Program-made: the position numbers and the translations under genes | The notes under the pieces: model-generated | Database searches by the model: none | What the model saw: only the letters and a program-made list of their open reading frames with translations | What the model was told of the DNA's origin: nothing | Part shown: piece after piece, positions 9,314 through 39,500 of the stretch | Layout of the letters: each line of letters starts with the position of its first letter | Position numbering within the stretch: the first letter of the stretch is position 1 | From: Oscillospiraceae bacterium | GTDB lineage: Bacteria; Bacillota; Clostridia; Oscillospirales; Oscillospiraceae | Direction of reading: 5' to 3' | Length of the DNA stretch: 64,000 nt | NCBI GenBank assembly: GCA_015068025.1 | Contig: SVLH01000006.1 | Coordinates: 9,920 to 73,919 of the forward strand

Positions 9314-9823
9314 TTATGCCCGAAACTCCATGAAGATGCCGCCATGCAGGGTGGAAAAACGCGGCTGTGTGCCGGTCATGGCTCCCACAGGGGTCACCTC
9401 TATGGAGAGGTGGGCGGGCTTCAGGCGGGCAAGTGCCCGTTCCAGAGCAGCGGTGTCCTCCGGAACGCGATTGTTTGCGATCACATTCAGGAAAACACGA
9501 AAATTGGCGAAATCTTCCGTGATCTCGGCGCTGTCGGCACCGCCCAGCGTAGCCGCCAGCTCTGCCAGATATGCGGGGGTCAGCGTGCGGCCGCCCGCCA
9601 TGGCGATGCGGATGTCCAGCCGTCGCCTTTCCGCATTGCCGCCGGAGCGATCCTGCAGACCGTAATCTGCCTCCCAGAGGGAGAGCGCGTCCGTGGCGGT
9701 GTTGACACACACCTGCGCATTTTTGCTGGCCACGGCGTCCAGAAGAAAGGCCTCACCGGCGGCCACGGAGGAGAGGGTTTCCCCCACGGGGGAAAGGGTT
9801 GTTAAAAATTCCGGAAGCTTCAT
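9314..9823 (-). CDS. baseplate wedge/fibre-attachment protein, XkdU/YmfQ (DUF2313)-like
   Basis: 'VNTATDALSLWEADYGL...ERRRLDI' and 'LERALARLKPAHL' motifs; start overlaps the XkdT-like stop. Confidence 0.8.
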   Translation of the reverse strand: MKLPEFLTTLSPVGETLSSVAAGEAFLLDAVASKNAQVCVNTATDALSLWEADYGLQDRSGGNAERRRLDIRIAMAGGRTLTPAYLAELAATLGGADSAEITEDFANFRVFLNVIANNRVPEDTAALERALARLKPAHLSIEVTPVGAMTGTQPRFSTLHGGIFMEFRA

Positions 9824-10602
9824 GCGCCTGCCTCCTGCAAGGACAGCGTGCCGCACACCGGCACCGCGTTTTCGGCCAGGATCAGGCTCTGGTCGCCGCC
9901 ATTGAGAGCGAAGCCGCTCACATCCGCTACGCCCTCACAGTCCAGCAAAAGGCGCAGAGCCTTGGAGTAGCTGACCGTGGTGGTGCGCAGTGCCAGGTCA
10001 CGGCAGAAGCTTGTCAAAGCGGCGGTAAATGCGGCGCAGACGGCTTCGATCTCGGCACCGTCCATCAGTCTGACCGCGGCGGAAACGTTCAGCGCCGTTT
10101 CTTCGGCGGCAAGGACGCGCGCATCGGCGCCGATGGGGCGCTCTCGATCCACCGCGGCCTGCGCTGCGGCAAGAACTGCGGCAGAGGGCGCTTTTCCGTC
10201 CGAAGCCACCGCCACAATGTCCACGGTACCGTTTCCTCTGGCCAGAGGGAACACTTTCACGCGCAGGAGATCGGGGCTTTCCAGACACCAGGCCTCGTAG
10301 TGGTCGATGTTGCCGGAGGCGGGGATGCCGGCCAGCTTTTCCAGTGTGCGGGCGCGCAGATCCTCGTCGCTTTCGTTTTCGCGGCGCACAACGCCGCGGT
10401 CTGCGCAGACGGCGGTCAGCCAGTCGCCGATGGCGGTGGAAACGAAAGCGCGGCGTTCCAGTCCGTCAATGTCCATGCTCCACAGCTGTGCCATGCCGTC
10501 GGCACAGGCACGGAGCACGTCGCCGGCAAAGGTGCCCTCCCGTGTGCTGCCGGGGCCGGCATAGGCGTCCAGCAGCAGCGTCAACATTTCATCCTTGGTC
10601 AT
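9820..10602 (-). CDS. baseplate J/XkdT-like protein (internally shortened)
   Basis: REGTFAGD, ESDEDLRAR, SGNIDHYEAW, VFPLARGNGTVDIV, RPIGADARV. Confidence 0.9.
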   Translation of the reverse strand: MTKDEMLTLLLDAYAGPGSTREGTFAGDVLRACADGMAQLWSMDIDGLERRAFVSTAIGDWLTAVCADRGVVRRENESDEDLRARTLEKLAGIPASGNIDHYEAWCLESPDLLRVKVFPLARGNGTVDIVAVASDGKAPSAAVLAAAQAAVDRERPIGADARVLAAEETALNVSAAVRLMDGAEIEAVCAAFTAALTSFCRDLALRTTTVSYSKALRLLLDCEGVADVSGFALNGGDQSLILAENAVPVCGTLSLQEAGA

Positions 10603-11036
10603 CCGATGGGAACCTCCAGTTTCTGAATATATTCGTCATAAATGGTGTGTACGGTGAACGACGCCTCCACCAGACTGCCCGTCCTTGAAAAGGAAAAGGT
10701 GTCCACGGCGGTGATATAGGGCAGGATCAGCAGGGCATCCCGGATATACTGCTTCAGTCGGCTCTCCAGAATGCCCTGGTCGGTGACGCCGCCCAGCAGA
10801 TGTTCCAGCTCGTTGCCGTAATCTGCGGACCATGCGGTGCAGCAAAAGCGCCGGCTTTCCGGGTGCAGGGCGCGCCAGACCCATATTTTCACGGCCTCGG
10901 TGCCGGTCACGGTGTAAAAGCTGCCGTTTCGCATGGCCAAGGTGCCGGCGTCCCAGTCCACGGCCCATTCGGTAAACGGGGGGAGCGTGCTGTTTGCGGT
11001 TTGCGCGGATACAGTCCCCCAGTCCGGAAAGATCAT
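10599..11036 (-). CDS. XkdS/DUF2634 sheath-initiator-like baseplate protein
   Basis: EWAVDW, VTGTEAVKIWVWRAL, DYGNEL, IRDALLILPYI, FTVHTIY. Confidence 0.85.
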   Translation of the reverse strand: MIFPDWGTVSAQTANSTLPPFTEWAVDWDAGTLAMRNGSFYTVTGTEAVKIWVWRALHPESRRFCCTAWSADYGNELEHLLGGVTDQGILESRLKQYIRDALLILPYITAVDTFSFSRTGSLVEASFTVHTIYDEYIQKLEVPIG

Positions 11037-11293
11037 GTGCTTGCCTCCTCGATTTGAAATAAGATCACAAACCCCTCCTCACAGGGCAGCAAGGCCACCT
11101 CACAGCCCAGATCCTCCTGCTCGAATGTCGTTCCGTGGGGGCAGAACAGGCCGCGGCTGATCTCCCGGCCCCGTACCTGCAGCGTCAGGGGAGAGAGGGA
11201 GGTCAGCGTGCCGAACAAGCCAACGGGGTTTCCGGCGGGCTTTGTTTGCAGGAGATCCAGGAGATCTCCGTAAATCATTCCGTTTGTGCCCAT
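11033..11293 (-). CDS. XkdR/DUF2577-like small baseplate (spike) protein
   Basis: 'GTLTSLSPLTLQV' and 'LGCEVALLP' patterns; lies between the XkdQ- and XkdS-like genes. Confidence 0.65.
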   Translation of the reverse strand: MGTNGMIYGDLLDLLQTKPAGNPVGLFGTLTSLSPLTLQVRGREISRGLFCPHGTTFEQEDLGCEVALLPCEEGFVILFQIEEAST

Positions 11294-11364
11294 GATTTTG
11301 GCTTCCTCGCTTTCTTTGTTTGTGTTTTCCGCACGGAGGCTTGAAAAACGCCCGTGCGAAGCGG

Positions 11365-12258
11365 TCATTTCCGTATGAATTCCAGCTGCATGGCGGTGGT
11401 GTAGATGCCGCCCTCCCAGCGATGCTCCGCGGCGGTGACGGCGTATACGCCGTCCAGCCCCCACTCACTGCGGTGCAGTTCGACGGCACAGCCGCAGCGA
11501 TAGTTCAGGTTGCCCATCACCGTCACTTCGCCCCGCAGGCTCCGTCCGGTCAGCGCGGCCTTTGCCTGTGCCGCAGGGTCGTCGCCGTTTTGCGGCAGGA
11601 AGGTCTGGAACTGTCCGTAGGCAGAGATGTCGTCAGGGCACTCTGCCGCGGCGCGGGCGATGTTCTTCCGATCCACCACGGTGCAGCGGTTGACCATGTG
11701 TGCAAGGGATGCCGTGCCGGAGACTTCCAGCACCTGGGAGGGCTGCAGCACATAGACGATGTAGGCATGCTTTGTCACGCACAGGGCATCGTCCCGAATA
11801 GAGATCTCAAACTTCTCTCCCACGGTCTGCCGCAGGATGGAAAATGCACTTTCTCCGGAATAAGAGGCGAAAAAGCGCATCCCCGGCCCGGTCTCCACCG
11901 TGCCGACGGCAATGCCAAGTTCCTCGGCGACCTGCTCCACGATGTCCGCGCTCTCACCGAAGTATGCGCCCCGCAGCTCGTTGCGGGTGAGGAAGATGCC
12001 ACGGTCATACGCGGTGAGGATCACGCGTTCCGGCGTGCGTTCCAGCACATGGATGCTGCCCAGAAACGCCTCCTTGCCGTCGTCATCCAGCAGCCGGACG
12101 GGATCACCCAACGCGAGGGACAGTTTTTGGATATAGGTATCCGCGGCGGCCAGAAGGATGGTGGCAGTAAGGGTGGCGGCAGCTTCGCTGCGCGCCTTGT
12201 GCAGCGTCAGGGACTCCAGCACGGGAAGGATCATCTGCTGTCCGATGTATAGCTTCAC
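11365..12258 (-). CDS. XkdQ/YqbQ-like baseplate hub protein
   Basis: LGDPVRL..FLGSI, LTAYDRGIFL, AEELGIAVG, YGQFQ, YAVTAAEHRWEGGIYT; synteny. Confidence 0.85.
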   Translation of the reverse strand: MKLYIGQQMILPVLESLTLHKARSEAAATLTATILLAAADTYIQKLSLALGDPVRLLDDDGKEAFLGSIHVLERTPERVILTAYDRGIFLTRNELRGAYFGESADIVEQVAEELGIAVGTVETGPGMRFFASYSGESAFSILRQTVGEKFEISIRDDALCVTKHAYIVYVLQPSQVLEVSGTASLAHMVNRCTVVDRKNIARAAAECPDDISAYGQFQTFLPQNGDDPAAQAKAALTGRSLRGEVTVMGNLNYRCGCAVELHRSEWGLDGVYAVTAAEHRWEGGIYTTAMQLEFIRK

Positions 12259-12911
12259 AGCACGATCACCTTCCCGATCTGCAACTTGCGGGGATCGGAG
12301 ACCCCGTTTTTGGCGGCCAGTTCCTGCCAGCGGGTGCCGTCACCGAAGAAACGGCAGGCGATATCCCACAGGGTGTCGCCCTTTTTCACGGTGTAGGTCT
12401 GGGGCGTGACGCGCTCGTCCGTTCTGGCAGGTGCGGACTGCACCCCGCCGGACGGCGCTTTGCCGGACTGCGCCCCCACGGACTGCTTTTCCGCAAGAGC
12501 CGCCAGAGCGGATTTGAATTTGTACTCCCGCAGGGTGACGGAGATTCCCACATCCGGGTCACCTTCCCGCAGGTACTCCGTCACGTCCTCGATCAAAAAA
12601 GCATCGTTGATGTCGCTGCCGGAGAGGATCAGGCGGATGGGATCGCCGGAGTCCTGCCAGCTTTTCAGCATGGAGAGAATCGTCTCCGGGTCGTTCCCGT
12701 CGGAAAAGGGCGAGTGGGCGGCGGGGAGAAAGGTGGTCAGCCGCACCTCCCGCAGACCCCGTCCGCCCCAGAGATTCACGGTGCCGCCCATGGCCAGAGA
12801 AGCCACGCGGTTTCGGTTGGGGCGGGAAACGGAGATCTCCGCGGGGTTGACGGCAAAGTAAATACGTTCTGCTCCGTTGTTGTGCCAGAGCAAAACGGTT
12901 CTGGTGTTCAT
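12255..12911 (-). CDS. XkdP-like tube initiator with C-terminal LysM domain
   Basis: FAVNPAEI N-terminal domain; YTVKKGDTLWDIACRFFGDGTRWQELA..N...DPRKLQIG LysM. Confidence 0.9.
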   Translation of the reverse strand: MNTRTVLLWHNNGAERIYFAVNPAEISVSRPNRNRVASLAMGGTVNLWGGRGLREVRLTTFLPAAHSPFSDGNDPETILSMLKSWQDSGDPIRLILSGSDINDAFLIEDVTEYLREGDPDVGISVTLREYKFKSALAALAEKQSVGAQSGKAPSGGVQSAPARTDERVTPQTYTVKKGDTLWDIACRFFGDGTRWQELAAKNGVSDPRKLQIGKVIVL

Positions 12912-12921
12912 AACAGTCCTC

Positions 12922-13815
12922 CTATCTTACAGCGGCCGCATTGCGCAGCCCCGCCAGAATGCGGCGTGCTACCCGTTCTGCCAGCGCGTCTTCGTCGATG
13001 GCCTCCCGGGTTGGATACGATGTCCTGACGTCAGCGGCGTCTTTCAGCGCAATTTCTGCGGGTGGCGCAGCAGCTTCGCCCACGAACTGGTCATCGGAAG
13101 CGGCGGAGAGCTGTGCGGCTGGGGGGATGACCGGGTGTACCGTCGGCCATTCTGCCGGCGCACTGTGGGCAAATCCCGGCGCTGCAAGCTGCGGGATCTC
13201 AATGGAAGATACTGCTGCAGGCTGCCGGAGAATGGAAAGATTTCCCGAAGCGACGTTCTTGGGTGCGGCCCGTGTGGGGTCGACGGCAGGCGAAGCCTCC
13301 GGTACGGCAAGGGCTTCGCGGAAAACGGCAGGTGCCTCCGGAGCGGCCGGCGCTTCGTTGGAAACGGCAGGTGCTTCCGATGCGGCAAGGAGGCCCCGGG
13401 AAAGGGCGGGCAAGGGGGCGGGAACGGTGAGATCACCGCCCGCCGCATCTTCATCCGCGCCTGCCGGCAGGGATGCTTCTTCTGCCTGTGCGGTGCGCTC
13501 CGGGAGAGATTGATCCATCCCGCTCAGTTCCAGGATTGTCCGGACGGCAGATTGCGTTTCATCTTCCGAGAGAAATGCCATGATCTCGTCCGGCTGAAAA
13601 AGGCTGCCCGCCTTGCGCAGATCTTCTCCGGCCGCCTGCAGTTCCCTGCAGGCGGCGTAGAGGACGGCGCGCGCGCCACCGGCGCCGCGCAGCAGCGCGG
13701 TCAATTCTGCCGGAGGCAGCGCTTCCACGGTCAGAACGCCCAGCGCACCGCATGCGACCTGTGCGCGATTTCCTTTGCGGGAGAGGCGCTCCCGCAGAAT
13801 ATCCGTCAGAGCCAT
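12922..13815 (-). CDS. XkdN-like tail chaperone fused through an Ala/Pro-rich linker to a tape-measure-C-terminus-like helix
   Basis: first ~100 aa end in 'PDEIMAFLSEDETQSAVRTILELSGM'; low-complexity middle; C-terminus 'EAIDEDALAERVARRILAGLRNAAAVR'; occupies the chaperone+TMP slot. Confidence 0.55.
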   Translation of the reverse strand: MALTDILRERLSRKGNRAQVACGALGVLTVEALPPAELTALLRGAGGARAVLYAACRELQAAGEDLRKAGSLFQPDEIMAFLSEDETQSAVRTILELSGMDQSLPERTAQAEEASLPAGADEDAAGGDLTVPAPLPALSRGLLAASEAPAVSNEAPAAPEAPAVFREALAVPEASPAVDPTRAAPKNVASGNLSILRQPAAVSSIEIPQLAAPGFAHSAPAEWPTVHPVIPPAAQLSAASDDQFVGEAAAPPAEIALKDAADVRTSYPTREAIDEDALAERVARRILAGLRNAAAVR

Positions 13816-14258
13816 TATTCAGCGGCCTGAATGCGCTCCAGACACTGGAGATCGCTGGGGCGGAAGCGGAAGGGCAGCTTCTGCTGGTTCACCTCGCCCA
13901 TCTTGTAGCCGATGAAGGGCAGCTCGGTGAATGCCACGCCGGAGATGCTGTAGCGCTCCTCCATGCCGCCGGCGGCGTCGGGATCCTTCAGGGCGGTGGT
14001 GATGGTGCAGCGCTTGTCCAGGCCATTTTTGGCCTGCTCCAGAACCTCGAAGAAGCGGCTGTAGACCTGCTTCAGGGTCATGGTACCCTCGCCGGAATAG
14101 CCGGTGATCTTGCTGTCGATGTCCATGCCGAACTGCACCTTTTCCCGCTGCACCTTGACGGTGAGGGTCAGCTCGCTCAGTTCGGCAATGCGTGCGCCGT
14201 CCACCCAGACCTCGGCGAAGGAGCCGGACAGGGTGCGGTTTGCCTGTAAATTACTCAT
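13815..14258 (-). CDS. XkdM-like tail tube protein
   Basis: LSGSFAEVWVDG, SKITGYSGEGTMTL, LKDPDAAG...ER, KLPFRF. Confidence 0.92.
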   Translation of the reverse strand: MSNLQANRTLSGSFAEVWVDGARIAELSELTLTVKVQREKVQFGMDIDSKITGYSGEGTMTLKQVYSRFFEVLEQAKNGLDKRCTITTALKDPDAAGGMEERYSISGVAFTELPFIGYKMGEVNQQKLPFRFRPSDLQCLERIQAAE

Positions 14259-14276
14259 GATTCGTCATACCTCCTG

Positions 14277-15305
14277 TTACATGGCGATGCGCAGGGAGAG
14301 ATCTTCCATGGCGTCGCAGAATGTCAGGTTTGCCTCCAGAAAGACCTCACTGCCGGTGTTGGCGCGCAGGATCTCGGCGTCCGTCATGCCGTCGGTGTCG
14401 ATGCCCCTGGATTCCAGATAGGCCTTCTGCCCGGCAAAAGACACAAAGCAGCGGTTGTCGGCGGTCTTGTCCAGCACGTCGCCCGCCAGGGCGGTCAGAT
14501 AGGCGTTGATGGCGGTGACCAGCAGCAGTTTGTTGTCGTAATCGTTGAGAACCTTGCCGATATAGCCGGACTCGAAGGTTCTGGCGATATCGGTGCGGAT
14601 CAGGTCGATGCCCTCCACGATCTTGATCTTCTGGAAGGGTGCGCCCTTGTCGGCGGTCAGGCTGGTCAGGGAATTGACGGCGCGGCCCAGACGATAGCCG
14701 TCCTGTCCTCTGACGATGATGAGCTTGCCGGCGTCCACTTCGGCGTCGGCATCTTCGTAGCCTGTGCAGGACACCACCTCGTCCAGCGCCACATAGGTGG
14801 CGGAACGGGTCAGGGGGAGAGCCGCCAGAATGGCAGCAACGCGGACGGTGTAGTCGGCGGCGTCAATGGCGCCGTCGTCCAGGATCAGGTCGTCCGCGCA
14901 CAGATTCACAATTCCCTCGCAGTCGGATGCCGTATCGGCCACCACGGCCTTGACGCCGCGGCCACAGCTGCGCTGGTTCTTGATGAAACTCACGACCTCG
15001 TCGGACTCCATGCCGGGGGCGGCCAGCCAGTCGAAGGGCAGCCGCTCCAGAGCGGACAGCGCGCCGTCGCCGGCACGCAGGACGCACACCTTGGAGGGGG
15101 CGGCGCGGAATGCCAGCTTCAGCAGACGGTAATTGTCCGCGGTAAACTGCTCCGCGGGGACCTCGGAGAGATTGCGGTAGACGGCCTCGGCGGCCCCGCC
15201 GGCGGTGTTGTCGTCCAGCACCAGAGCCAGAATGCCGCGGGCAGAGCGGGTGATCGCGGATACGGCCGCGGTTTCAAATGCAATAAAAATTTCGGGTAAA
15301 CCCAA
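14277..15305 (-). CDS. contractile tail sheath protein (clostridial myophage/diffocin type)
   Basis: TTG start after GGAGG; MGLPEIFIAFETAAVSAITRSARGILALVL, RSATY, RAVNSLT, FQKIKIVE, YIGKVLNDYDNKLLL, DAMEDL. Confidence 0.93.
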   Translation of the reverse strand: MGLPEIFIAFETAAVSAITRSARGILALVLDDNTAGGAAEAVYRNLSEVPAEQFTADNYRLLKLAFRAAPSKVCVLRAGDGALSALERLPFDWLAAPGMESDEVVSFIKNQRSCGRGVKAVVADTASDCEGIVNLCADDLILDDGAIDAADYTVRVAAILAALPLTRSATYVALDEVVSCTGYEDADAEVDAGKLIIVRGQDGYRLGRAVNSLTSLTADKGAPFQKIKIVEGIDLIRTDIARTFESGYIGKVLNDYDNKLLLVTAINAYLTALAGDVLDKTADNRCFVSFAGQKAYLESRGIDTDGMTDAEILRANTGSEVFLEANLTFCDAMEDLSLRIAM

Positions 15306-15354
15306 TGAAAAAGCCTCCTTTTTCCGACCTGCCGCAGCAGGTGCGGTTAATCTG

Positions 15355-15777
15355 TCAAATCTCAAAATGCAGAATATTCATGCGATCTGTGGCCGGAGGA
15401 ACGGCAGTTTCCGCAGGCGGGACAGGAACGCACAGCTCCAGGGAGAATGTCAGACATTCCTCCTCCGTGCGGATGTTCAGCGGATGCAGGTTCCGGGGCG
15501 TACCGGCCAGCTCCAGCGGGATTCCCCGCAGCAGGGGCGGCACGAGGGAAGACAAAAGCGCCATGTTCCCATCCCGTTCCCGGTCACTGACGGCGGTGAC
15601 TGTCACCTGATAAGAGTGTTCCGCCTGCTGTCCGCCGCAGAGAAGAACGGTGCCGTTCTCCTGCACGGATACCGCCAGCAGGGGATATTCTCCCCGGATG
15701 CGGGTGCGGTCGGAAACGGTTTTCACACCGGCTTGCTCCTGCAAGTACGCCCTTACGGCCTCCTGAATGATCTTCAC
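15355..15777 (-). CDS. putative tail terminator/neck protein
   Basis: 140 aa ORF directly upstream of the sheath, GTG start overlapping the previous stop; assigned mainly by synteny. Confidence 0.55.
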   Translation of the reverse strand: MKIIQEAVRAYLQEQAGVKTVSDRTRIRGEYPLLAVSVQENGTVLLCGGQQAEHSYQVTVTAVSDRERDGNMALLSSLVPPLLRGIPLELAGTPRNLHPLNIRTEEECLTFSLELCVPVPPAETAVPPATDRMNILHFEI

Positions 15778-16124
15778 GGCTCTGCCACCTCCATGATGTC
15801 CACAACGGTCACACAGTGGGAGGGATAGAGAATGCTGTCGGACGTTCTTCCGTGAAACACTCTGCCCGCGGTGTCCGACACCTCGACCCGGTCTCCCAGC
15901 TGAAAGGTGCGCTGGGGAAGGGTATACAGGCTGAGGCGGTACGCCGCCTCCGGCAGCACATAGGTGCTGTCGGGAGGGGCGGGAGCCGCGACTCTTGCCA
16001 GTCGGCTGAGGGCGCATTTTTCGTTTTCACAGACCGGCCTTTCCCCGTCCGGCCCCATCCGCCACGCGGAAACGCGGTGGTAGTAGGTGCGGGAGAGGAT
16101 TGCCGCACAGGCGTTGTCGGTCAT
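15774..16124 (-). CDS. head-closure (stopper) protein
   Basis: 'TYYHRVSAWR...VCENEKCALS...LGDRVEV...YPSH' pattern of Firmicute phage head-closure proteins; synteny. Confidence 0.65.
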   Translation of the reverse strand: MTDNACAAILSRTYYHRVSAWRMGPDGERPVCENEKCALSRLARVAAPAPPDSTYVLPEAAYRLSLYTLPQRTFQLGDRVEVSDTAGRVFHGRTSDSILYPSHCVTVVDIMEVAEP

Positions 16125-16447
16125 GCGTCATCCCTCCCCAGCCGGCGGAGGCGGCGGAAGGGCGCAAGCCCTGCAAGGGGGCTTCCTGCGGCGCTGCCGG
16201 TGTCATAGGTGATGGAGGTGTCGCCGCGGGTCAGCGCCTTGACTGCCGTGCCGTTTCCGTCAGCAGCGGCTGCCACCAACTGCGCCAGCGGCAGCTCCAT
16301 CGCCTCGGGGACATCCTCTCTGCCGCAGTAGGCGAGGGCCCACAGCACCACCATGGAGGTCAGCGCGTCGCCGTTTTCTCCGAGGGAGCGGTCCAGAAGA
16401 AGTTCCGCCTTGCTCCGGACAGAGGGGATCTTGTCAGCGGCGCTCAT
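16121..16447 (-). CDS. head-tail connector (SPP1 gp15/HK97 gp6-like)
   Basis: 'ALAYCGREDVPEAME' and 'VKALTRGDTSITY' motifs; follows the capsid gene. Confidence 0.8.
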   Translation of the reverse strand: MSAADKIPSVRSKAELLLDRSLGENGDALTSMVVLWALAYCGREDVPEAMELPLAQLVAAAADGNGTAVKALTRGDTSITYDTGSAAGSPLAGLAPFRRLRRLGRDDA

Positions 16448-17379
16448 TACGCCTCCACGATGGCGCCGACGGAAGCCAGACGCTTTTCGGGCACGAACAG
16501 GTCGTACAGGTAGCGGGCCTGAATGGAGGTGCCGTCGAAGAACTGGTTTTCCTGGGGGCCGAACTGCTTGATGGAATCCAGCTTGCTGACCGCCAGGGGG
16601 GTGTCGCAGTGGGCGATGACCACGGCGATGTCCTGTGCGCCGGAGCCGGCAACGATGCCGCCGTCGTTTTCGTCGCCGTCCTGAATGGTCACGGCGGTCT
16701 TCATGCGATTCTGGGGCACGAAGATGCAGGGCAGGTCGTCCAGCATCATGACATTGTCATAGGTCACACCGTTGATGGAAACGCTGTTGCCGAAGGTGAT
16801 GCTGTGATAGGTGTCGTTGGCGGCCTCCAGGAAGGCGGTCTTGTTCTTGTGGCTGATGAGAGCCACATAGCCGTCCATCTCCTCGGCGTCGTCGCGGATG
16901 GTCTGCAGCAGACCGCTGACGGTGGCAATGGCGTTGTCCTTGGTCAGGGTCTGGGTGAGAATGTGGGTGTCGCTGTGGGCGCTGTCGGCGGCCAGAGAAT
17001 ACAGCTTGTTGATGCGATACATGTCCTGTTCACGCACCAGAGCAGAGCGGGAGAATTCGCGGATGACGTTCTCGGCGGTAACGATGAAGCCGGTGTCATT
17101 GGGGTCGGTGCGGTCCAGAGCGAACTTCACGCCGCGGTCCATGGAGAGGGGATAGCTCTTCCATGCGTTGGTCACCGTACCGCTGGGATAGGCGGAGCCG
17201 TCGGACTTGGTGGCGTCATAGCTGCCAAGGCCGGTGGTGGACAGGGTGGAGATCTCCACATTGCGGCCGCCGGCGAAACGGATCTTGCCTGCCTCGGGGA
17301 CCATCCATGCGGTGGCGGAAAGGGCGGTCATCTCCTCGTCGATGAACTGCTGGTATGCTTTTGCGTAGTCGAATGCCAT
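16447..17379 (-). CDS. phage major capsid protein
   Basis: 'FAGGRNVEISTLSTTGLGSYD...YPSGTVT..W..YPLSMDRG..F..D..D', 'EQDMYR', C-terminal 'QARYLYDLFV'; strong RBS aggagg. Confidence 0.85.
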   Translation of the reverse strand: MAFDYAKAYQQFIDEEMTALSATAWMVPEAGKIRFAGGRNVEISTLSTTGLGSYDATKSDGSAYPSGTVTNAWKSYPLSMDRGVKFALDRTDPNDTGFIVTAENVIREFSRSALVREQDMYRINKLYSLAADSAHSDTHILTQTLTKDNAIATVSGLLQTIRDDAEEMDGYVALISHKNKTAFLEAANDTYHSITFGNSVSINGVTYDNVMMLDDLPCIFVPQNRMKTAVTIQDGDENDGGIVAGSGAQDIAVVIAHCDTPLAVSKLDSIKQFGPQENQFFDGTSIQARYLYDLFVPEKRLASVGAIVEA

Positions 17380-17448
17380 TCAAAAAACCTCCTGAATTTG
17401 TTTTGCGGGCAGCTGCTCCCTTATGGCTGAAACCAGCCATTTGAGGCT

Positions 17449-17502
17449 ACTTTAGCGCAAAAAAAGACCCCTGCCGCGGGAAGCGTTTCCAAAAAACGCG
17501 GC
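17449..17502 (-). promoter_or_regulatory. putative activator-dependent promoter of the capsid-tail operon (GCCGCGTTTT-N8-GCTTCC-N24-TAAAGT)
   Basis: same boxes and spacing as upstream of the portal gene; a 7-bp hairpin (17423-17440) would sit at the transcript 5' end. Confidence 0.7.
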
Positions 17503-17516
17503 CCGCGGAGGGGAAC

Positions 17517-17549: not shown

Positions 17550-18017
17550 TCAGAACAGGTGGATCACACCGGCGGTGACCAGAGCAACGATGAGACCGGC
17601 GACGCAGACGCCGCCAAAGATGGCAGGCAGGGCGGTCTTTATCCGCATATCCAGCACGCCGGCCACCAACGCACCGGTCCAGGCGCCGGTGCCGGGCAGG
17701 GGGATGGCCACCAGGATAAAAAGACCCAGCGTGCGGTACTTCTTTACGGTCTGCCCCTTCAGGTGGGCTCGCCGTTCCAGCCGGTCGATCAGCCCGCCCA
17801 GCTTGGGGAAACTCCGCAGCCAGGCGAAGACCCGCCGCAGCAGGAGCAGGATAAAGGGGACGGGGATCGTGTTGCCGATGATGGAAATCATGGTGGCTGC
17901 GGGCACACTCAATCCGGCGGCCACGCCCATGGGCAGAGCGCCCCGCAATTCGATCACAGGCACCATGGACATGAAAAAGGTCATGGCCGCAGCGCCGAGT
18001 AAGCTTTCTCCAAACAT
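17550..18017 (-). CDS. COG2426/'small multi-drug export' family membrane protein
   Basis: SMVPVIELRGALP, IGNTIPVPFI, VAIPLPGTGAWTGAL. Confidence 0.9.
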   Translation of the reverse strand: MFGESLLGAAAMTFFMSMVPVIELRGALPMGVAAGLSVPAATMISIIGNTIPVPFILLLLRRVFAWLRSFPKLGGLIDRLERRAHLKGQTVKKYRTLGLFILVAIPLPGTGAWTGALVAGVLDMRIKTALPAIFGGVCVAGLIVALVTAGVIHLF

Positions 18018-18255: not shown

Positions 18256-20688
18256 GTGAAACGAATGAAGCAAAGACGTTCCGGCGGGATCGCAGCGGAG
18301 AAGCGCGCAGACACGGTCAGATTCTGGCTGTTCGGCGGGCTGTTGTTCCTGTCTGCCACAGTCATGACCGGCTGGATGAGCGTTTTCCTGGCGGCGGCCG
18401 CCTGCGTAACCCTGTTTTTGCTGGGGAAAAGAGGGGCAGAGAACTTCCGGGAGCATCTGTGCATCCCGGTGATCGGTCTGCTGCTGTTTGCGCTGGCCAA
18501 TGGCGCGGCAGCGATCTATTCCCCCTTTGATGAAACGGCAGTGGCCGAATTCTATAAGATCTTTGCGGCGATCGCATTGTTCGCGGTGGCGATTACGCGG
18601 TTTGAGAAGAAGCATGTCCGCGGTCTCCTGTGGGGGATGGCGGGGGTCTGCGCGGCCATTTCCCTGTTGAGCATCGATCTGGCCTGCGACGGGATCTTGT
18701 TTGAGATATTTAGATCTGTAACAGAAATCCTTGGCGGCAGCTATACGGGCATGGAGGATGCCGGCGGTCGCGTGGGCGGACTCTATAACAATGCCAATGT
18801 CTTTGCCGGCCTTGTGTCCGTAGGTGCTGTTTCTGCGCTGTATCTGGCCGATTCCGAAGAAGAACGCGGGAAAAAACTGCCGGCCTGGCTGCTTGTCGGG
18901 CTGTGTGCGCAGGGCCTTCTGCTGTCTGCCAGCCGCGGCGGCCTGCTCTGCTTTGGCCTGGCGCTTCTGGTGTGGCTGATTGCAGCGGAAAAGACGGCGC
19001 GGCTGCGCCTGTTCCTGAAGATGCTGCTGGCGGCAGTGGCGGCGGGTGCGGCATCGGCGGTGGCGGCGGCTGCTGTTCGCGGCGGAACCGCATGGCTGGC
19101 GCTGATGGTGACGGTGCTGTCCGGCGCGGCGATGTGGGGGCTGGATCGCTTCCTCGCCGGCCGCCTGACCGGACTGCTGTCCGGCCGGGGAAAACTGGTG
19201 GCGGCCACCCTTGCCGTGATTTTCCTGCTCTGTGCGGGCTATGTGATTGCCGCGGTGGCAGTCAAAGGTCCCTATACCTTCACGGAAAGCGGACATCTGC
19301 GCCGTGAGATCGTGCTGGAAGCCGGAGACTACACCGTTTCCGGCGACTGGGACGGTGAGGTCTACGTTTGGGTGAGTACCGAAAACCGGGAGCAGCTGTT
19401 TCTGGACATTGGTGATGTCGCCTATGATGGCCTGCTGGAAAACGCGGCCTTTACGGTTCCGGAAGGAACCAGGCAGGTCACCTTCGGCATTTCCGCCCAG
19501 CCCGGCACCGTTCTGCGGGAGTTGGTGCTGTCTGATGGAACGAAGATCCCTCTGGACTATCCTCTGATCCCCGGTTTTCTGGAAGACCGTCTGCAGGGCA
19601 ATCTGTTTTTGAGCAGCAGCTTCCTTCTGCGCGTGCAGTTCATGAAGGACGCTTTGACGCTGTTTGCGCAGAAGCCGCTGCTGGGTCATGGTTTGAGCAG
19701 CACGGAGAATCTGTATGCCGCCGTTCAGCCCTTCCGCTATGAGAGCCGCTATGTGCATAACCATATTTTGCAGTTTATGAGCGATATGGGTCTTTTCGGC
19801 CTGTTGTCCTACCTGCTGCTGGCAGGGGGTGCTGCCTGGCTTCTGATCCGGAAACTGCGTCAGGAACGAGAGATGCAGACGGCCATGCTTCTGGGCGGAT
19901 GGGTCATGATAAACGCCCACAGCCTGATGGAGATCAACTTCTCCGTGCGCTCGTACCAGTGTGTGGCCATGGTGTTTTTTGCGGTGATTGTCATTGCCTG
20001 CGGCCATCCGCTGATCCAGGCGGCCTCGGTTCGGGGAAGAATTGCCGCAAAGCGGGCGGGGATCGCCGTTCAGGCGCTGCTGTGCCTGTATCTGGCGGTG
20101 TTCGGGGGGCTGCTGATGAGCCATCGGACGGTGAACGAGGAAGCCGCGGTCTTTTCCGGATCGTCCGTGCAGGAATACATGGATGCCTGGAGAAGCTACA
20201 TCCGGCGGGATGTGTTCACCACGGCACAGCACAAGCTGAATTTTGTGGGCAACGCAGTGCGTGCCGATGGGGATCAGTACCGGGAAGAGATGGAACGCTG
20301 GGCGGGGGATCTCCGCAGGAGCGGAACCTATACGAACTGTTCCGGCCTGGCCCGGCATTATTACCTGCCCAAAGGGGCGTATGAGGAGATGTTCGCCTGC
20401 TCCCGGGAAGGCATTGCACAAGTCGCCTCCTCTCCTGACGGCTGGAACCTGCAGATGAACTTTTACCGCAGCGAGGTGCTTCCCGTCATCGAGCCGGAGG
20501 AACTGGACGTCTATCTGGATGGCGTGCTGGCGCTGGAAACCTATCTGGAGGCGTACAATGCCGAACGGATGGAGGAGATCAGCCTGACGGAGGAAAACGA
20601 AGCCTTCCTGTCCGTTGCGAAGAAACTCCGGGAGAACCCCATAGATGCCGGAACGGCCTATATGGTGCTGTCCGCGGCAGCCGGCTGA
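18256..20688 (+). CDS. large O-antigen ligase/O-oligosaccharyltransferase-family (Wzy_C) membrane protein
   Basis: many TM segments; RVGGLYNNANVFA, SASRGG, R...MKDAL..F..KPLLGHG, YVHNHILQFMSDMGLFG. Confidence 0.8.
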   Translation: MKRMKQRRSGGIAAEKRADTVRFWLFGGLLFLSATVMTGWMSVFLAAAACVTLFLLGKRGAENFREHLCIPVIGLLLFALANGAAAIYSPFDETAVAEFYKIFAAIALFAVAITRFEKKHVRGLLWGMAGVCAAISLLSIDLACDGILFEIFRSVTEILGGSYTGMEDAGGRVGGLYNNANVFAGLVSVGAVSALYLADSEEERGKKLPAWLLVGLCAQGLLLSASRGGLLCFGLALLVWLIAAEKTARLRLFLKMLLAAVAAGAASAVAAAAVRGGTAWLALMVTVLSGAAMWGLDRFLAGRLTGLLSGRGKLVAATLAVIFLLCAGYVIAAVAVKGPYTFTESGHLRREIVLEAGDYTVSGDWDGEVYVWVSTENREQLFLDIGDVAYDGLLENAAFTVPEGTRQVTFGISAQPGTVLRELVLSDGTKIPLDYPLIPGFLEDRLQGNLFLSSSFLLRVQFMKDALTLFAQKPLLGHGLSSTENLYAAVQPFRYESRYVHNHILQFMSDMGLFGLLSYLLLAGGAAWLLIRKLRQEREMQTAMLLGGWVMINAHSLMEINFSVRSYQCVAMVFFAVIVIACGHPLIQAASVRGRIAAKRAGIAVQALLCLYLAVFGGLLMSHRTVNEEAAVFSGSSVQEYMDAWRSYIRRDVFTTAQHKLNFVGNAVRADGDQYREEMERWAGDLRRSGTYTNCSGLARHYYLPKGAYEEMFACSREGIAQVASSPDGWNLQMNFYRSEVLPVIEPEELDVYLDGVLALETYLEAYNAERMEEISLTEENEAFLSVAKKLRENPIDAGTAYMVLSAAAG

Positions 20689-20851
20689 ACAGGCGAAAAC
20701 GGAGCACAAGATAATGCGAGCGTTGCGACCCCCGGTGCAAGGTGTGCACCGGGGGTTTTCTGCGCAAAACCCGCGCGCTCCGGGCGCGGGAACGGAAGGG
20801 GGAAAACCGCCCCAATTCGCTGAAAATAAAAGGAAAAACCGAAGCCGGGGA

Positions 20852-20880
20852 TTGAACTGGCACGGCCTGCGTGGTATAAT
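20852..20880 (+). promoter_or_regulatory. sigma-A promoter of the glycan operon
   Basis: TTGAAC-17-TATAAT with extended -10 TG. Confidence 0.7.
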
Positions 20881-20988
20881 GTTAGTCGTATTATTATGGG
20901 TTGTTATGCCATCTGATCTTTGCCGCACCCGGTAAAAACAAGAAAGACCCGGCTGGCGGCGGAAATCATGCGGAAAGGAACATCGTGC

Positions 20989-22107
20989 ATGAAAAATCGG
21001 CTTTTCCTGTCCTCGCCCACCATACATGGGGAGGAGCAGGTGTTTGTGAAAGAGGCGTTCGACACCAACTGGGTTGCGCCGCTGGGGAAGAATGTCAACG
21101 AATTTGAAAAGGAATTGGCGGCGTATCTGGGCATCGGCCATGCCGCGGCGCTGACCTCCGGCACGGCGGCGCTGCACCTTGCTGTCAAGCTGGCCGGTGT
21201 GAAGCCGGGCGACAAAGTGTTTTGCAGTGACCTGACCTTCTCCGCCACGGTCAACCCTGTTAGCTACGAGGGTGCAAAGCAGGTGTTCATTGACAGCGAA
21301 CGGGACACCTGGAATATGGACCCTGCCGCGCTGGAAAAGGCCTTTGAGAAGTATCCGGACTGCAAATGCGTGGTGCTGGTGCACCTGTACGGCACACCGG
21401 CGAAGCTGGACGAGATCCGCGCCATCTGCGCCGCCCACGACGCCGTGCTGATCGAAGACGCGGCGGAGAGCCTGTCCGCCACCTATAAGGGACAGCAGAC
21501 CGGCACCTTCGGCCGCTACAATGCGGTGTCCTTCAACGGCAACAAGATCATCACCTCCTCCGGCGGCGGTATGCTGCTGTGCCACGAGGAAAGTGCCGCT
21601 GCAAAGGCGCGGTTCTGGGCCACCCAGTCCCGGGAGCCCTTCCCGTGGTATCAGCACGAGGAATTGGGCTACAACTACCGTATGAGCAACATCGTGGCGG
21701 GCATCGGCCGCGGCCAGCTGCTCCATCTGGAGGAACACCGCAGCCTGAAGGAGCGGATCTACCATACATACGAAAAGGGATTTGCCGGTTTGCCGGTGAA
21801 GATGAATCCGTATCTCGACTGTAGCCGTCCCAACTTCTGGCTCTCCTGTATTACCATTGACCCGGCCTGCGCCGTCACGCCGGAGCAGATCCGTCTGGCG
21901 CTGGAGGCCGAAAACATGGAAGCCAGACCCCTCTGGAAGCCCATGCACATGCAGCCGGTGTTTGCAGATCGGGACTTTGTTGCCGTGGAAGGCGGCGACG
22001 GCGTGGGCGGCGACCTGTTTGCCCGGGGACTGTGCCTGCCCAGTGATATCAAGATGACGGAAGAAGAACAGGCGGAGGTCATCCGCGTTGTGAGAGGACT
22101 GTTTTGA
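20989..22107 (+). CDS. DegT/DnrJ sugar aminotransferase (PglE/EpsN-like)
   Basis: [53 protein letters not shown]. Confidence 0.9.
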
Positions 22108-22727
22108 TGTATCAGCGCTTTTTCAAACGCTTTCTGGATATCGTTCTCTCCGGCTGCGCGCTGCTGGTGCTGTGGCCGGTGCTGCTGGTGGTGGCGGTAT
22201 TGGTGCGCGTGAAGCTGGGCAGCCCGGTGATCTTCTGTCAGGAGCGCCCCGGCAAGGATGAGAAGATCTTCAAAATGTACAAGTTCCGCTCCATGACCGA
22301 TGAACGGGACGAACACGGCGAGCTGCTGCCGGATGAGATCCGGCTGACGAAATTCGGCAGGCTTCTCCGTGCCACCAGTCTGGACGAGCTGCCGGAACTG
22401 TGGAATATCTTCAAAGGGGATATGTCCGTCGTCGGCCCCCGCCCTCTGTTGGTGAAGTATCTGCCCCTGTACAACGAGGAGCAGCGCCACCGCCACGACG
22501 TGCGCCCGGGTCTGACAGGGCTTGCGCAGGTGAATGGGCGCAACGCCATCAGCTGGGAGGAAAAATTTGCGCTGGATGTGCAGTATGTGAGGAACATCAC
22601 CTTCCTCCATGACGTGAAAATCGTGCTTGCCACCGTGGGAAAGGTCTTCCGACGGAGCGGCATCCATTCTGAAACTGCGGCGACCATGGAGGAGTTCCGT
22701 GGCACGCCGGTGGAGGCGGAACGATGA
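22107..22727 (+). CDS. initiating phosphoglycosyltransferase (PglC/EpsL-like)
   Basis: [43 protein letters not shown]. Confidence 0.92.
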
Positions 22728-23362
22728 GAGATCTGGTCATTATCGGCGCCGGAGATTTCGGCAGAGAGGTTTCGTGGGTCGTGGAGCGCAGCAACGCCTG
22801 CGATGCACAGTGGAACCTGCTGGGCTTTGTGGACGATGCGCCCGCCGTGCAGGGCATGGTTTTTGACGGCTATCCGGTGCTTGGCACAACGGCGTGGCTG
22901 GCACAGCGGACGGAGGAGACCTGGGTGGTCTGCTCCATCGGCACGGGTCGTGTCCGCAAGCAGGTGCTGGAGCGCGTGCTGCAGCAGGAGAATCTTCATC
23001 CCGCCACACTGATCGACCCCGCAGCCATCGTGGCCCGCGGTGCCCGGGTGGGCGAGGGCTGCGTTGTCTGTGCGGGCACGGTGCTGGCCATCCATGCGGA
23101 GCTGGCGCCTCACGTTATCGTGAACCTGAACTGTACCGTGGGACACGACACCGTTCTGGAGCCCTTCTGCACGATCCATCCCGGCACCAACCTCTCCGGA
23201 AAGGTGCTTGTGGGCGAGGGGTGCGATATCGGCACGGGGACGAAAGTGATCCAGGGCGTGCGCCTCTGCGCGGGCTGTGTCGTCGGCGCCGGCGCCGTGG
23301 TCACAAAAACCATTGACGAGCCGGGCACCTATGTGGGCGTCCCGGTCAGGAGGATCCGTTGA
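22724..23362 (+). CDS. PglD/NeuD-family sugar acetyltransferase
   Basis: [16 protein letters not shown], hexapeptide repeats, VGHD. Confidence 0.88.
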
Positions 23363-24603
23363 AAAAAACCGTTTGGATCATGAACCACTACGCCGGCAAT
23401 ATGTTTTTTGACCGGGGTGGGCGGCATTACAATTTTGCGAAATACCTGAAAAGAAGCGGCTACGAGCCGGTGGTGTTCTGCGCCAACAGCAGGCACAACG
23501 CCGAAGGACTCTGGTTTGAAAACGATGGTCTCTGGCACGAGCATACGGCGGAGGAGATCAATGTCCCCTTTGTGTTTGTGGCGGCCAGAGACTATGCGGG
23601 CAACGGAAAGCAGCGCGTGCTGAACATGGTGGATTTCTACCGCCATGTGAAGAAGGCGGCCAAAGCCTACGCCGCGCAGAACGGCAAGCCGGACGTCATT
23701 TTGGCCTCCTCCGTCCATCCCCTGACGCTGGTGGCCGGCATCCAACTGGCAAAGCACTTCGGTGTGAAGTGCATCTGCGAGGTGCGCGATCTCTGGCCGG
23801 AGAGCATCGTGGAGTATTCCTCCCGCCTGACGCGGAAGAATCCCGTGATCCGCCTGCTGTACGCCGGGGAGAAGTGGATCTACAAGAAAGCCGACGCGGT
23901 GCTGTTCACCTGCGAGGGCAGTTACGACTACATTCTGGAACAGGGCTGGGAGAAAGCGATCCCCCGGGAAAAGGTGTTTACCATCAACAACGGCGTGGAT
24001 CTGGAACAGTTCGATGCCAACCGGGCGCAGTTCACCGTTGAGGACGCGGATCTGGATGATCCCGAACAGTTCAAGGTGGTCTACACCGGCTCCATCCGCA
24101 GGGTCAACAATCTCGGTTTGCTGCTGGACGCCGCAAAGCAGGTGACGGATCCCCGGGTGAAGTTCCTCGTCTGGGGCGACGGCGACGAGCTTTCCGCCCT
24201 GCGGCAGCGGCTGTCGGATGAGGAGATCGAAAATGTTGTGTTCAAGGGACGGGTGGAAAAGCGCTGTGTGCCCGACATCGTCAGCCGTGCGGATCTGAAT
24301 TTTATGCACGGAACATCTTCCAACCTGTTTCGCTTTGGCATCAGCCCCAATAAACTGTTTGAGTATTTTGCGGCCGGCCGGCCGGTGCTTTCCGATCTGG
24401 AGGCCAAATACGACCCCACGGAAACGTTCCAATGCGGCGTGTTTGCCACCACCGGGGAAGAAATTGCCGCAGCTGTCCAGCGCCTTGCGGGCGCGCCGGC
24501 AGAGGAGTATGCGCAGCTTTGTTCCGGCAGCCGGAAGGCCGCACAGGAATATGATTTCTCCAATCTGACGAAGACGCTCATTGAGATCATTGAAAAGGGA
24601 TGA
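23359..24603 (+). CDS. GT4 glycosyltransferase (WbuB-like)
   Basis: EVRDLWPESI, NNGVD, YTGSI, SPNKLFEYFAAGRPV. Confidence 0.88.
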   Translation: MKKTVWIMNHYAGNMFFDRGGRHYNFAKYLKRSGYEPVVFCANSRHNAEGLWFENDGLWHEHTAEEINVPFVFVAARDYAGNGKQRVLNMVDFYRHVKKAAKAYAAQNGKPDVILASSVHPLTLVAGIQLAKHFGVKCICEVRDLWPESIVEYSSRLTRKNPVIRLLYAGEKWIYKKADAVLFTCEGSYDYILEQGWEKAIPREKVFTINNGVDLEQFDANRAQFTVEDADLDDPEQFKVVYTGSIRRVNNLGLLLDAAKQVTDPRVKFLVWGDGDELSALRQRLSDEEIENVVFKGRVEKRCVPDIVSRADLNFMHGTSSNLFRFGISPNKLFEYFAAGRPVLSDLEAKYDPTETFQCGVFATTGEEIAAAVQRLAGAPAEEYAQLCSGSRKAAQEYDFSNLTKTLIEIIEKG

Positions 24604-25337
24604 GGCAGATGAACTTTACCTATCAGGCCTATGCGGATATGCTTGCGCTTTTGAAGGACGGCGGCTATCGGTTTTGCGACTATCATACCTGCGCGCAGCA
24701 GCCCCGCTGCGTCATTCTTCGCCATGACATCGACACCAGTCTGGAGCAGGCGCTTCGACTGGCGGAAGTGGAGGCGGCGCAGGGCGTCCGCTCCACCTGG
24801 TTCGTGCTTCTCCGCACAGACTTTTACAATGTGTTTTCCCTGTCTGCCCGCCGGTCGCTGCAGAAGCTCCTTGCGCTGGGACACGAAGTGGGCCTGCACT
24901 TCGATGAAGTGGCCTACGGCCGTCCCCTTTCGGAGGAGGAGACCGTCCGGAACATTCAGACGGAGTGCGGCATTTTGTCCACGGTGCTGGAGCGGCCGGT
25001 GACCTGTGTTTCCATGCACCGCCCCTCTCAAGCGACGCTGGAAGCCGACCTGCAGATCCCGGGTATCGTGAATTCTTACGGCAAGACCTTTTTCCGTGAT
25101 TTCAAATACCTTTCCGACAGCCGCAGGCGCTGGCGGGAGCCGGTGCTGGACATCATCCGCACCGGGGAATATGACCGCCTGCATATCCTGACCCATGCCT
25201 TCTGGTATCATGAGCAGGAAGAGGATATTGCGGAAACGGTGGGAAATTTTGTGCGAGCCGCCAATGGGGAGCGCTATGTTCAGATGAAGGACAACATTAC
25301 GGATCTGGCTTCCATTCTGCGAGAGGACGAGGTTTGA
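24600..25337 (+). CDS. polysaccharide deacetylase-like protein
   Basis: ILRHDID, GHEVGLHFD, SMHRP, YLSDS, HILTHAFW. Confidence 0.65.
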   Translation: MRQMNFTYQAYADMLALLKDGGYRFCDYHTCAQQPRCVILRHDIDTSLEQALRLAEVEAAQGVRSTWFVLLRTDFYNVFSLSARRSLQKLLALGHEVGLHFDEVAYGRPLSEEETVRNIQTECGILSTVLERPVTCVSMHRPSQATLEADLQIPGIVNSYGKTFFRDFKYLSDSRRRWREPVLDIIRTGEYDRLHILTHAFWYHEQEEDIAETVGNFVRAANGERYVQMKDNITDLASILREDEV

Positions 25338-25338
25338 T

Positions 25339-26235
25339 ATGCTGAAAATTTCGGAGATTCTGGATTTTCTGACCCGGCAGGACATCTCCTTTGTGTTTGA
25401 GGGCGATGCGGCGGCGCAGGTGGAGGGCTTTTCCTCTCTGGCGCGCTACAAAGCCGGGTCCTTCACCTGGATCAAACACGAAGCCAATATTCCGGCCGGT
25501 TTTGACCTGTCCGGGATCGCTCTGGCCATCGTTTCGGACGAGGTGACCGTCCCTGTGCGGAATGTGATCCGCACCTCCCAGTCCAAGCGGGCGTTCTTTT
25601 CCGTGATGGAGCATTTTTACGGGGAAGAGGAAGCGCGCCCCGCCATTGGACAGTTCACCTACATCTCTCCCAAAGTGAAGCTGGGGAAGAACGTCCGCAT
25701 CGGCCACAACTGCACGCTGGACGGCGACATTACCATCGGAGACGGCACGGTGATCTGGAATCATGTGACCATCGTGAACCGGGTGCAGATCGGCGCAGAT
25801 TGCGACATCCGCTCCGGCGCGGTGGTCGGCCATGACGGATACGCCTACACGGAAGATGCCAACCACAGGAAAACCATGGTGAAGCACTTCGGCGGCGTGA
25901 CCATCGGCGACAATGTGTTGGTCGGCGAAAACGTCTGCATCAGCCGGGGCACCATCGATGACACCGTGCTGGAAGACGGCGTGAAGATCGATGCGCTGGG
26001 CCACATCGCACATAACTGCTGGTTTGAGCGGGACGCTGCCATGGCGGTTCCGTGCAGCGTCAGCGGCAGCGTCCGGGTTGGCCGCAATGCCTATCTTGCC
26101 GGCAGCATCATCCGCAATCAATGCACCGTTGGCGAAAACGCATTTGTCGGGCTGGGCGCCGTGGTTGTCCGGGACGTGCCCGCCGATGAAACGGTGGTTG
26201 GAAACCCTGCGAAACCATTGAAGAAGAAGGATTGA
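25339..26235 (+). CDS. LpxD-like hexapeptide acyltransferase
   Basis: VVGHDGYAY, HFGGVTIGDNV, ISRGTIDDTV, KIDALGHIAHN. Confidence 0.8.
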   Translation: MLKISEILDFLTRQDISFVFEGDAAAQVEGFSSLARYKAGSFTWIKHEANIPAGFDLSGIALAIVSDEVTVPVRNVIRTSQSKRAFFSVMEHFYGEEEARPAIGQFTYISPKVKLGKNVRIGHNCTLDGDITIGDGTVIWNHVTIVNRVQIGADCDIRSGAVVGHDGYAYTEDANHRKTMVKHFGGVTIGDNVLVGENVCISRGTIDDTVLEDGVKIDALGHIAHNCWFERDAAMAVPCSVSGSVRVGRNAYLAGSIIRNQCTVGENAFVGLGAVVVRDVPADETVVGNPAKPLKKKD

Positions 26236-26237
26236 TT

Positions 26238-27946: not shown

Positions 27947-27950
27947 TGCC

Positions 27951-30388: not shown

Positions 30389-30411
30389 ACCTTTGACGGG
30401 AGGACGTTTTC

Positions 30412-31503: not shown

Positions 31504-31515
31504 GGAGACGGAGAA

Positions 31516-32589: not shown

Positions 32590-32590
32590 T

Positions 32591-34087: not shown

Positions 34088-34106
34088 GAGGAGGGAGATC
34101 TGCCTC

Positions 34107-35612: not shown

Positions 35613-35643
35613 TATGGAAACATGATTGGAAAGGACGATCTGT

Positions 35644-38048: not shown

Positions 38049-38060
38049 GATCGTTCCTCC

Positions 38061-39155: not shown

Positions 39156-39167
39156 ACTCATCCTCCG

Positions 39168-39458: not shown

Positions 39459-39500
39459 TGTGGTTCTCCTTTCCTCCGTGTCAATGATGTTGAGCGGCAC

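Follow-up and report, generated by a model that had tools for sequence, protein, structure and literature searches.

Two phage-derived operons and the sites ahead of them

The window analysed here is a 64-kb stretch of contig SVLH01000006.1 from an Oscillibacter-like Oscillospiraceae assembly (genome G000; 1.54 Mb, 71% complete), and it carries two operons of phage-derived particle genes on its minus strand. The first operon (17379-9314) encodes the capsid, adaptors, sheath, tube and baseplate, and the second (40757-37621) encodes the portal, a short scaffold, a tail fibre and two small proteins; each is headed by a site of the kind discussed below. A first-pass annotation of the window had placed an identical tripartite promoter motif upstream of the capsid and portal genes, and both strings are indeed present on the minus strand, at 17502-17449 and 40838-40785, with spacers of 8 and 24 nt. 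The gene identities hold as well, i.e., the proteins downstream match phrog_422 (major capsid protein) and PF05133 (SPP1-type portal), and a sigma-70 scan detects no −35/−10 pair at either site, as had been claimed. However, the system is not limited to two operons: it comprises at least three loci, the three in this genome having host genes between them, and we refer to these together as the element.

A genome scan with the 16 noted bases returns two exact matches in the window and the same number in the whole assembly, whereas shuffling the window 100 times gives a mean of 0.08 matches at up to two mismatches. Among pairs of TAnnnT-anchored upstream regions compared at the same spacing, 26 of 320,400 attain the observed 17/24 identities (about 8e-5). 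The portal site is also reproduced with 0 differences in contigs spanning it from two public runs (X1 and X5, possibly the source samples), and contig depth in run X1 is flat across the polysaccharide-portal region.

Alignment of 34 sites redraws the element's promoter. The conserved core consists of a T-tract, the dyad GAA-N4-TTC, one base, 24 nt and TAnnnT, rather than the boxes first drawn, because the GAA letters (32, 31 and 29 of the 34 sites), the TTC letters (26, 26 and 34) and the −10 letters T, A and T (30, 33 and 33) are kept, whereas the C-C-G-C-G positions of the annotation are weakly so, with majorities of 12-22 of 34 and, at three of these five positions, a majority base other than the annotated one. 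The best-conserved left half-site, GAA, thus falls inside what had been taken for a variable spacer, and part of the GCCGCG box belongs to a terminator-like hairpin present only at the capsid site. The literal 16-mer, with which relatives were to be scanned, has zero exact matches among 60 of them and was rejected as the motif. De novo motif sampling of 37 orthologous upstream regions recovered an ungapped element, in the annotated register at both window sites and with the orthologs aligned. Dyad symmetry is maximal at the predicted centre (0.60, vs. 0.41 or less elsewhere; 33 sites), which lies 30.5 bp ahead of the −10 box; with a box starting at −12, this corresponds to −42.5.

Before motif building, duplicate genomes were left out, as were four distant capsids of prophages (L028-L031); the first matrix was built without L051, L063 and L065, and the second also without L061. 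A matrix trained without the window sites ranks the capsid site first and the portal site second among 3.07 million positions. Leave-one-out scores of at least 11 were obtained for 20/20 capsid and 13/17 portal upstream regions, against a background of 42 of the 3.07 million positions. One of the remaining four portal regions has its site further upstream, bringing the portal count to 14/17; the portal gene of G160 lies inside a terL (large terminase) operon that itself carries a site, and the portal contig of G159 is too short for judgement. In this genome, the two element operons are the only ones above 13 (28.0 and 23.4) among the upstream regions of called genes (n = 1384), the next scoring 12.2. 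Ten of 12 capsid loci from IMG/VR have upstream sequence, and all ten carry the site, many as near-copies. Conservation before orthologous operons, which the annotation had proposed as a check, is supported, and so is its view of a shared, selected, activator-type promoter without a −35 box.

The third-ranked genomic site, C12:47129, stands before a 25-aa open reading frame (ORF) and was rejected, since its score is not kept across relatives (16.5 only in the nearest; 6.2, 0.8 and 4.3 in three others) although the ORF is conserved. This unannotated ORF (G000:C12:47040-46963, L219) lies downstream of tRNA genes, is kept in 5/5 aligned genomes, and has a core GDVDDLIFQD, a strong ribosome site and a conserved CATATACT box; it is perhaps a sporulation gene.

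The hairpin at the capsid site recurs in three orthologs (z −3.7 to −4.7), with a weak consensus fold (compensatory change in 6/11 pairs), and is likely an insulating terminator; folding of the portal site gave no hairpin (z 0.5). A short perfect hairpin also lies in the predicted capsid leader (17423-17440, minus strand), with similar ones in several orthologs. The features are collected in the table.

Table. Positions of the element's genes, its sites and neighbouring host genes (window coordinates unless a contig is named)
Feature	Position	Strand	Details or basis
Capsid-operon promoter	17449..17503	-	T-tract 17495-17493; dyad GAA-ACGC-TTC 17489-17480; −10 TAAAGT 17454-17449; predicted start ~17442
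Portal-operon promoter	40785..40839	-	T-tract 40831-40829; degenerate dyad GTC-CTGC-TTC 40825-40816; −10 TACCCT 40790-40785; predicted start ~40778
G+C-rich hairpin and U-tract overlapping capsid promoter	17459..17513	-	−33.4 kcal/mol, z −3.4
Major capsid protein	16447..17379	-	phrog_422, E 1e-57
Two head-tail adaptors and conserved 129-aa connector-position gene	15355..16447	-	phrog_132, phrog_615
Contractile sheath and tail tube	13815..15365	-	PF04984, PF17482, PF09393
297-aa protein, tail-assembly-chaperone-like N-terminus and low-complexity linker of variable length	12922..13815	-	N-terminus vs. phage chaperones, E ~0.001
LysM hub, YqbQ-like, XkdR-like, sheath initiator, short baseplate J, Mu gp48-like	9314..12911	-	family profile matches
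SPP1-type portal and short (96 aa) head scaffold	39168..40757	-	PF05133, PF14265
Tail fibre and two small conserved genes	37621..39161	-	phrog_7037 (fibre)
Host surface-polysaccharide cluster between the operons	18256..37575	+	continues as Polysacc_synt_2 gene 40983-42878
Host small multidrug-export gene	17550..18017	-	PF06695; landmark beside element or remnants in several relatives
Large terminase (terL)	G000 contig C6:6712-8286		phrog_38, gene neighbourhoods
mor, 90-aa protein	G000 contig C6:8310-8582		downstream of terL; PF08765

The 297-aa protein occupies the position where related phages have a chaperone and a 744-832-aa tape measure. A reading in which it ends like a tape measure was rejected, with no hidden Markov model support and no tape-measure match of its C-terminus; a conserved C-terminal helix follows the linker, and orthologs span 192-426 aa overall. 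Close homologs of the capsid protein (17 loci) come mostly from Oscillibacter and other Oscillospiraceae, together with records labelled Clostridia or unclassified, and folding the capsid from its sequence alone yielded nothing informative (pLDDT 30).

A candidate activator and further sites in relatives

The third locus of the element is a two-gene terL-mor unit, found in 11/16 mapped regions and divergent from the capsid operon in 10 of the 11. Its large terminase, TerL (phrog_38, E 3e-102), has motifs that we take to be of the ATPase and nuclease types, and its second gene encodes a Mor-family late activator (PF08765, E 2e-18), the single Mor/C-family match in this genome. PBSX-type terminase profiles (PF04466, TIGR01547) have no match in this genome, TerL belonging to a different family. 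Mor PF08765 occurs in 20/20 tested genomes with element genes vs. 31/121 genomes of the genus, and mor follows terL in 17 of the 20.

At nine phage or prophage loci, the sequence immediately following mor was also scored with the matrix, with 100 shuffles per locus where run. The dyad was found right behind mor in six: in FP_Mushu, MT835795 and the G121 prophage, it was beaten by 0/100 shuffles, in G020 and G021 by 1/100 each, and the G161 prophage has the same letters behind mor, with no shuffle run. The spacer is 25 nt long in five of these six loci; provided that the −10 box begins at −12, the dyad centre then falls at −43.5, exactly the geometry of phage Mu. In Mu, promoters activated by Mor and C have a −10 box and lack a −35, and the two proteins bind there to a 16-bp dyad whose centre is at −43.5 (PMC4390567, PMC2582627); recruitment of sigma-70 holoenzyme is described in another report (10.1101/2025.05.02.651988). 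The features of Mor/C promoters found here are thus a −10 box without a recognisable −35, an imperfect dyad near −43.5, and a Mor/C gene linked to the regulated genes. Because the genome's only Mor follows terL, phages carry the dyad behind mor, and Mu Mor and C bind a dyad at −43.5, the dyad is very probably a Mor box, i.e., the predicted binding site of the genome's Mor/C activator. The annotation had offered either a dedicated activator or an alternative sigma-like factor; the activator is retained, most likely of the Mor/C family, and the sigma factor is less likely.

In G150 and G157, which form one lineage, the helix-turn-helix region of Mor differs and the sites are mostly GAA-N4-GAC. 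This covariation is no more than suggestive, since it arose only once and since some genomes whose Mor is canonical likewise have GAC at their portal sites.

Extra copies, which had been predicted before terminase and lysis genes, are found in relatives, at sites that were outside the matrix training set. A site precedes terL in G072, G158 and G160, an extra fibre gene in G156, the holin in G158, a fibre gene and a holin-CHAP endolysin pair in G072, and a repA-mor unit in G160. Genome G072 (contig C3; genome 98% complete) keeps terL-mor-rep, fibre and lysis modules, with a site at terL, fibre and lysis each; a capsid was not found anywhere in the genome, and portal and tail genes were absent over 80 kb.

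Upstream of terL, 14/19 genomes can be aligned on a second palindrome, TGCAC-N6-GTGCA, which three remnants have ahead of mor. Its strict form (TTGCAY-N6-RTGCAA) occurs exactly twice in this genome, at G000:C6:6605 before terL-mor and at G000:C13:14162 before a trio of hemolysin-like, holin-like and endolysin genes (C13:14229-15136). At least two genomes that lack the element also have it ahead of comparable genes, so that it is probably a signal used more widely by hosts or phages. In about 15 genomes of the genus, most of them lacking the element, another baseplate-like gene has a hemolysin-like gene immediately after it (L288-L307), possibly marking a second domesticated tail cluster.

A Rep3-type initiator lies beside mor in 9/17 terL-mor loci, followed by a primase-helicase in the mapped regions, and run-off replication from this module is possible. 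In many relatives, the initiator and primase-helicase after mor (L103:7083-10723) are directly beside S-layer genes, and G160 has a RepA_N gene upstream of mor instead of the Rep3-type initiator. We note that MT838800 (4.9 kb, deposited as a phage scaffold) is a terL-mor-rep piece of the element and that 12 IMG/VR contigs are likewise pieces of it.

Selection, inheritance and the readings of the element

The element genes are under purifying selection: the ratio of nonsynonymous to synonymous divergence (dN/dS) is 0.04-0.37 for 13 of them, and capsid, portal and TerL are as constrained as the tail genes. Intact related prophages have a small terminase, a NusG-like gene, a gene at the minor-head position and a long tape measure, none of which is present in the element operons. 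The Mu-gp27-type small terminase (PF11985) was not found in 7/8 element genomes, the eighth having it on other contigs, and prophage-bearing controls were positive.

The portal-fibre operon is 71.5% identical in nucleotides to that of the closest relative, G145, vs. 85-87% for the flanks, and the middle part of the polysaccharide cluster is mostly non-homologous to that relative. In two sister pairs, synonymous divergence (dS) of the portal-scaffold-fibre operon is 0.9-1.4 vs. 0.3-0.6 for the rest. This suggests that the fibre module has been exchanged together with the surface cassette; two other sister pairs show no excess. Genome G150 has two portal-scaffold-fibre operons.

We consider it rather likely that the element is the Mor regulon of a domesticated, probably DNA-packaging particle, in which the two window sites are copies of one promoter design and Mor co-induces the separated operons. 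A trigger, possibly acting via the second palindrome, would switch on the terL-mor operon (G000:C6:6712-8582); Mor would then bind the dyads and, like Mor and C in Mu, recruit the housekeeping RNA polymerase, and the capsid, tail, portal, scaffold and fibre would be produced together. TerL may fill the heads with host DNA (a small terminase was not found), and a separate holin-endolysin cassette would lyse the cell. The ancestor may have had one such promoter behind mor, driving a single long late operon, and on breakup of that operon each piece would have gained a promoter copy.

Judged from the genes, the particle is most likely a DNA packager similar to gene transfer agents (GTAs) or PBSX, and we lean slightly towards a working GTA. 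Set against the GTA criteria in the accessible part of PMC9662315, the particle proteins are derived from tailed phages and the element is endogenised over several loci. For vertical inheritance, distances between element genes correlate with those of the single host marker DnaK (Mantel rho 0.66-0.88), alongside patchiness and apparent portal-operon exchange. For the packaging of random host DNA, in pieces smaller than the agent's own genome, the putative machinery of TerL, portal and capsid is intact. An R-type tailocin was rejected, as capsid, portal and TerL are present and conserved; so was an intact prophage, which would keep a small terminase, a tape measure and lysis genes together in one contiguous genome, unlike the element, and a capsid-forming phage satellite, a single excisable unit without tail genes, since the element has a full tail operon and dispersed loci.

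However, a number of observations weigh against this picture. At the level of the site, the window's portal copy has GTC in place of GAA in its left half, the portal upstream region of G157 scores −2.0, and the plain pattern is not enriched over a reversed control (18 vs. 18 in five genomes), with 8/18 matches at element operons; three other plain-pattern matches score 20-23 with no element gene seen. The upstream region of terL scores at least 12 in only 8/19 genomes, and the copy expected before this genome's own terminase-mor operon is absent (score −2.0). At three of the nine phage and prophage loci (BalMu-1, the G093 prophage and Villandry) the dyad is not above shuffles, and the only Mor in G161 is of the prophage type. 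At the level of the particle, the element operons showed neither a tape measure nor a minor head protein, which makes DNA delivery uncertain. As for inheritance, the Mantel correlation is partly driven by deep splits, and the element is patchy, with a close capsid in 7/121 genomes of the genus; on a quick DnaK tree, this patchiness needs at least five gains or losses. The G077 copy has stops, and G140, G062 and G109 keep remnants without terL, beside the same host gene, which suggest repeated loss.

The absence of a full tape measure, together with a contractile sheath and baseplate, is what a PBSX-like killer under the same Mor regulon would look like. Such a particle may package host DNA, its contractile tail would act on relatives with a different surface polysaccharide, and the co-inherited polysaccharide cassette would confer self-immunity. 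The portal-scaffold-fibre operon does lie inside the polysaccharide cluster, in two sister pairs it has diverged more quickly than the other element genes, and PBSX is described as non-injecting and tailocin-like in the accessible text of PMC12946183. However, capsid, portal and TerL are constrained like the tail genes, and the replication initiator next to mor in many terL-mor loci would be unneeded by a pure killer; we consider this reading improbable.

Gut phages such as FP_Mushu carry the same dyad, and the sites might detect an incoming phage, Mu-like or related, by its Mor/C protein; the element would then be a helper-dependent satellite or a defence by assembly interference. The missing small terminase would fit this, as would the satellite-like Rep and primase-helicase module. 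The element nevertheless keeps its own mor under purifying selection, its spacer is 24 nt rather than 25 nt, it is spread over at least three loci interleaved with host genes, and no integrase was recognised beside the window operons, where no search aimed at integrases was made. It is thus quite unlikely that the sites answer to another phage.

We give still less weight to a host regulator of the LacI/CcpA, Rex or LexA type, or to a motif that is mainly a terminator hairpin, and regard both as very unlikely. GAA-N4-TTC presumably resembles Rex and cre operators, and a hairpin with a U-tract is predicted at the capsid site. On the other side, no fold is predicted at the portal site, the spacing between the dyad and TAnnnT does not vary, unrelated phages have the dyad behind mor, and high scores in this genome are limited to the two element operons. 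Sigma-54, Spo0A, LexA, Rex and cre sites were dropped on spacing and the absence of a wider regulon. Finally, a prophage in decay, its shared letters being due to chance or left over, is already disfavoured and hardly credible: its patchy distribution, pseudogenes and remnants speak for it, yet the chance of such a pair is low, the site is conserved in 20 genomes, dN/dS is far below 1, and new promoter copies appear wherever a module has moved.

An extension of the Mor-regulon reading, which we regard as speculative and doubtful, is a hitherto undescribed GTA of gut Oscillospiraceae with a contractile tail, its three to five dispersed operons forming a Mor regulon of the Mu type. Here, the Mor-linked Rep and primase-helicase would amplify the surrounding S-layer/polysaccharide locus, and the particle would preferentially shuttle surface cassettes and its own fibre module, thereby acting as a serotype-switching device.

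Comparison with known systems

GTA-like packaging in Oscillospiraceae is reported in virome studies, the accessible text of which names no gene cluster (PMC12946183; 10.64898/2026.07.08.737213); one of them describes, in the part available, a run-off-replication-like peak in Pelethomonas without a convincing cluster (10.64898/2026.07.08.737213). A published description of the element or its operator was not found in the literature searched, in which most subscription papers are lacking. The element supplies a candidate cluster for this packaging, with a candidate master switch (one 90-aa protein) and its operator, and induction is therefore directly testable in the cultured strain Oscillibacter valericigenes An890. 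This strain also has a separate TerS-TerL-portal cluster without the motif (G019:C22:109300-111900, L067), absent from the G000 assembly by tblastn. The element would further show how a phage late operon can fragment yet remain coordinated by re-seeding one activator box, and it provides a motif with which other dispersed modules can be sought, as well as the operator that Mor/C proteins probably use in Firmicutes phages such as FP_Mushu.

Mu middle and late promoters, as far as the accessible literature describes them, share with the element a −10 box without a −35, an imperfect dyad at about −43, a GC-rich centre, an upstream A/T tract, and an activator of the same Pfam family (PF08765). They differ in that the host here is Gram-positive, the dyad is GAA-N4-TTC, the sites stand before dispersed chromosomal operons, and Mor binding is predicted. 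Five related phage loci are exactly one base longer in the spacer. The intact Mor-encoding myoviral prophages of the genus (G093, G017, G021, G109) are closer, with TerL 54-56%, sheath 43-45%, Mor 43-44% and capsid 27% identical, a shared tail gene order and a promoter-like site directly behind mor; they differ in keeping TerS, the NusG-like gene, the minor-head-position gene, the tape measure and lysis genes in one operon.

PBSX of Bacillus is likewise host-resident and has the same order of head and contractile tail genes (YqbQ/Xkd-like families). PBSX is one cluster with its own sigma-like late factor, a small terminase and a long tape measure, whereas the element is split and Mor-linked, has a TerL that resembles Mu gp28, and lacks a full tape measure. 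FpGTA of Faecalibacterium, compared with the element by description only, is also a multi-locus system of gut Clostridia with head/packaging and fibre/lysis operons far apart; however, it is podovirus-like, has TerS and is near-ubiquitous in its genus, and the accessible part of its description gives no promoter or regulator (PMC12946183). BaGTA of Bartonella, in the accessible text of its description, shares dispersed loci under one phage-derived regulator and a replication module beside a variable surface-gene region (10.1101/2024.11.20.624540). For the element, run-off replication is only a possibility, and Rep was not found in this 71%-complete genome. The two also differ in their regulators: BaGTA relies on the antiterminator BrrG (10.1101/2024.11.20.624540), whereas the element repeats a predicted activator box at each locus.
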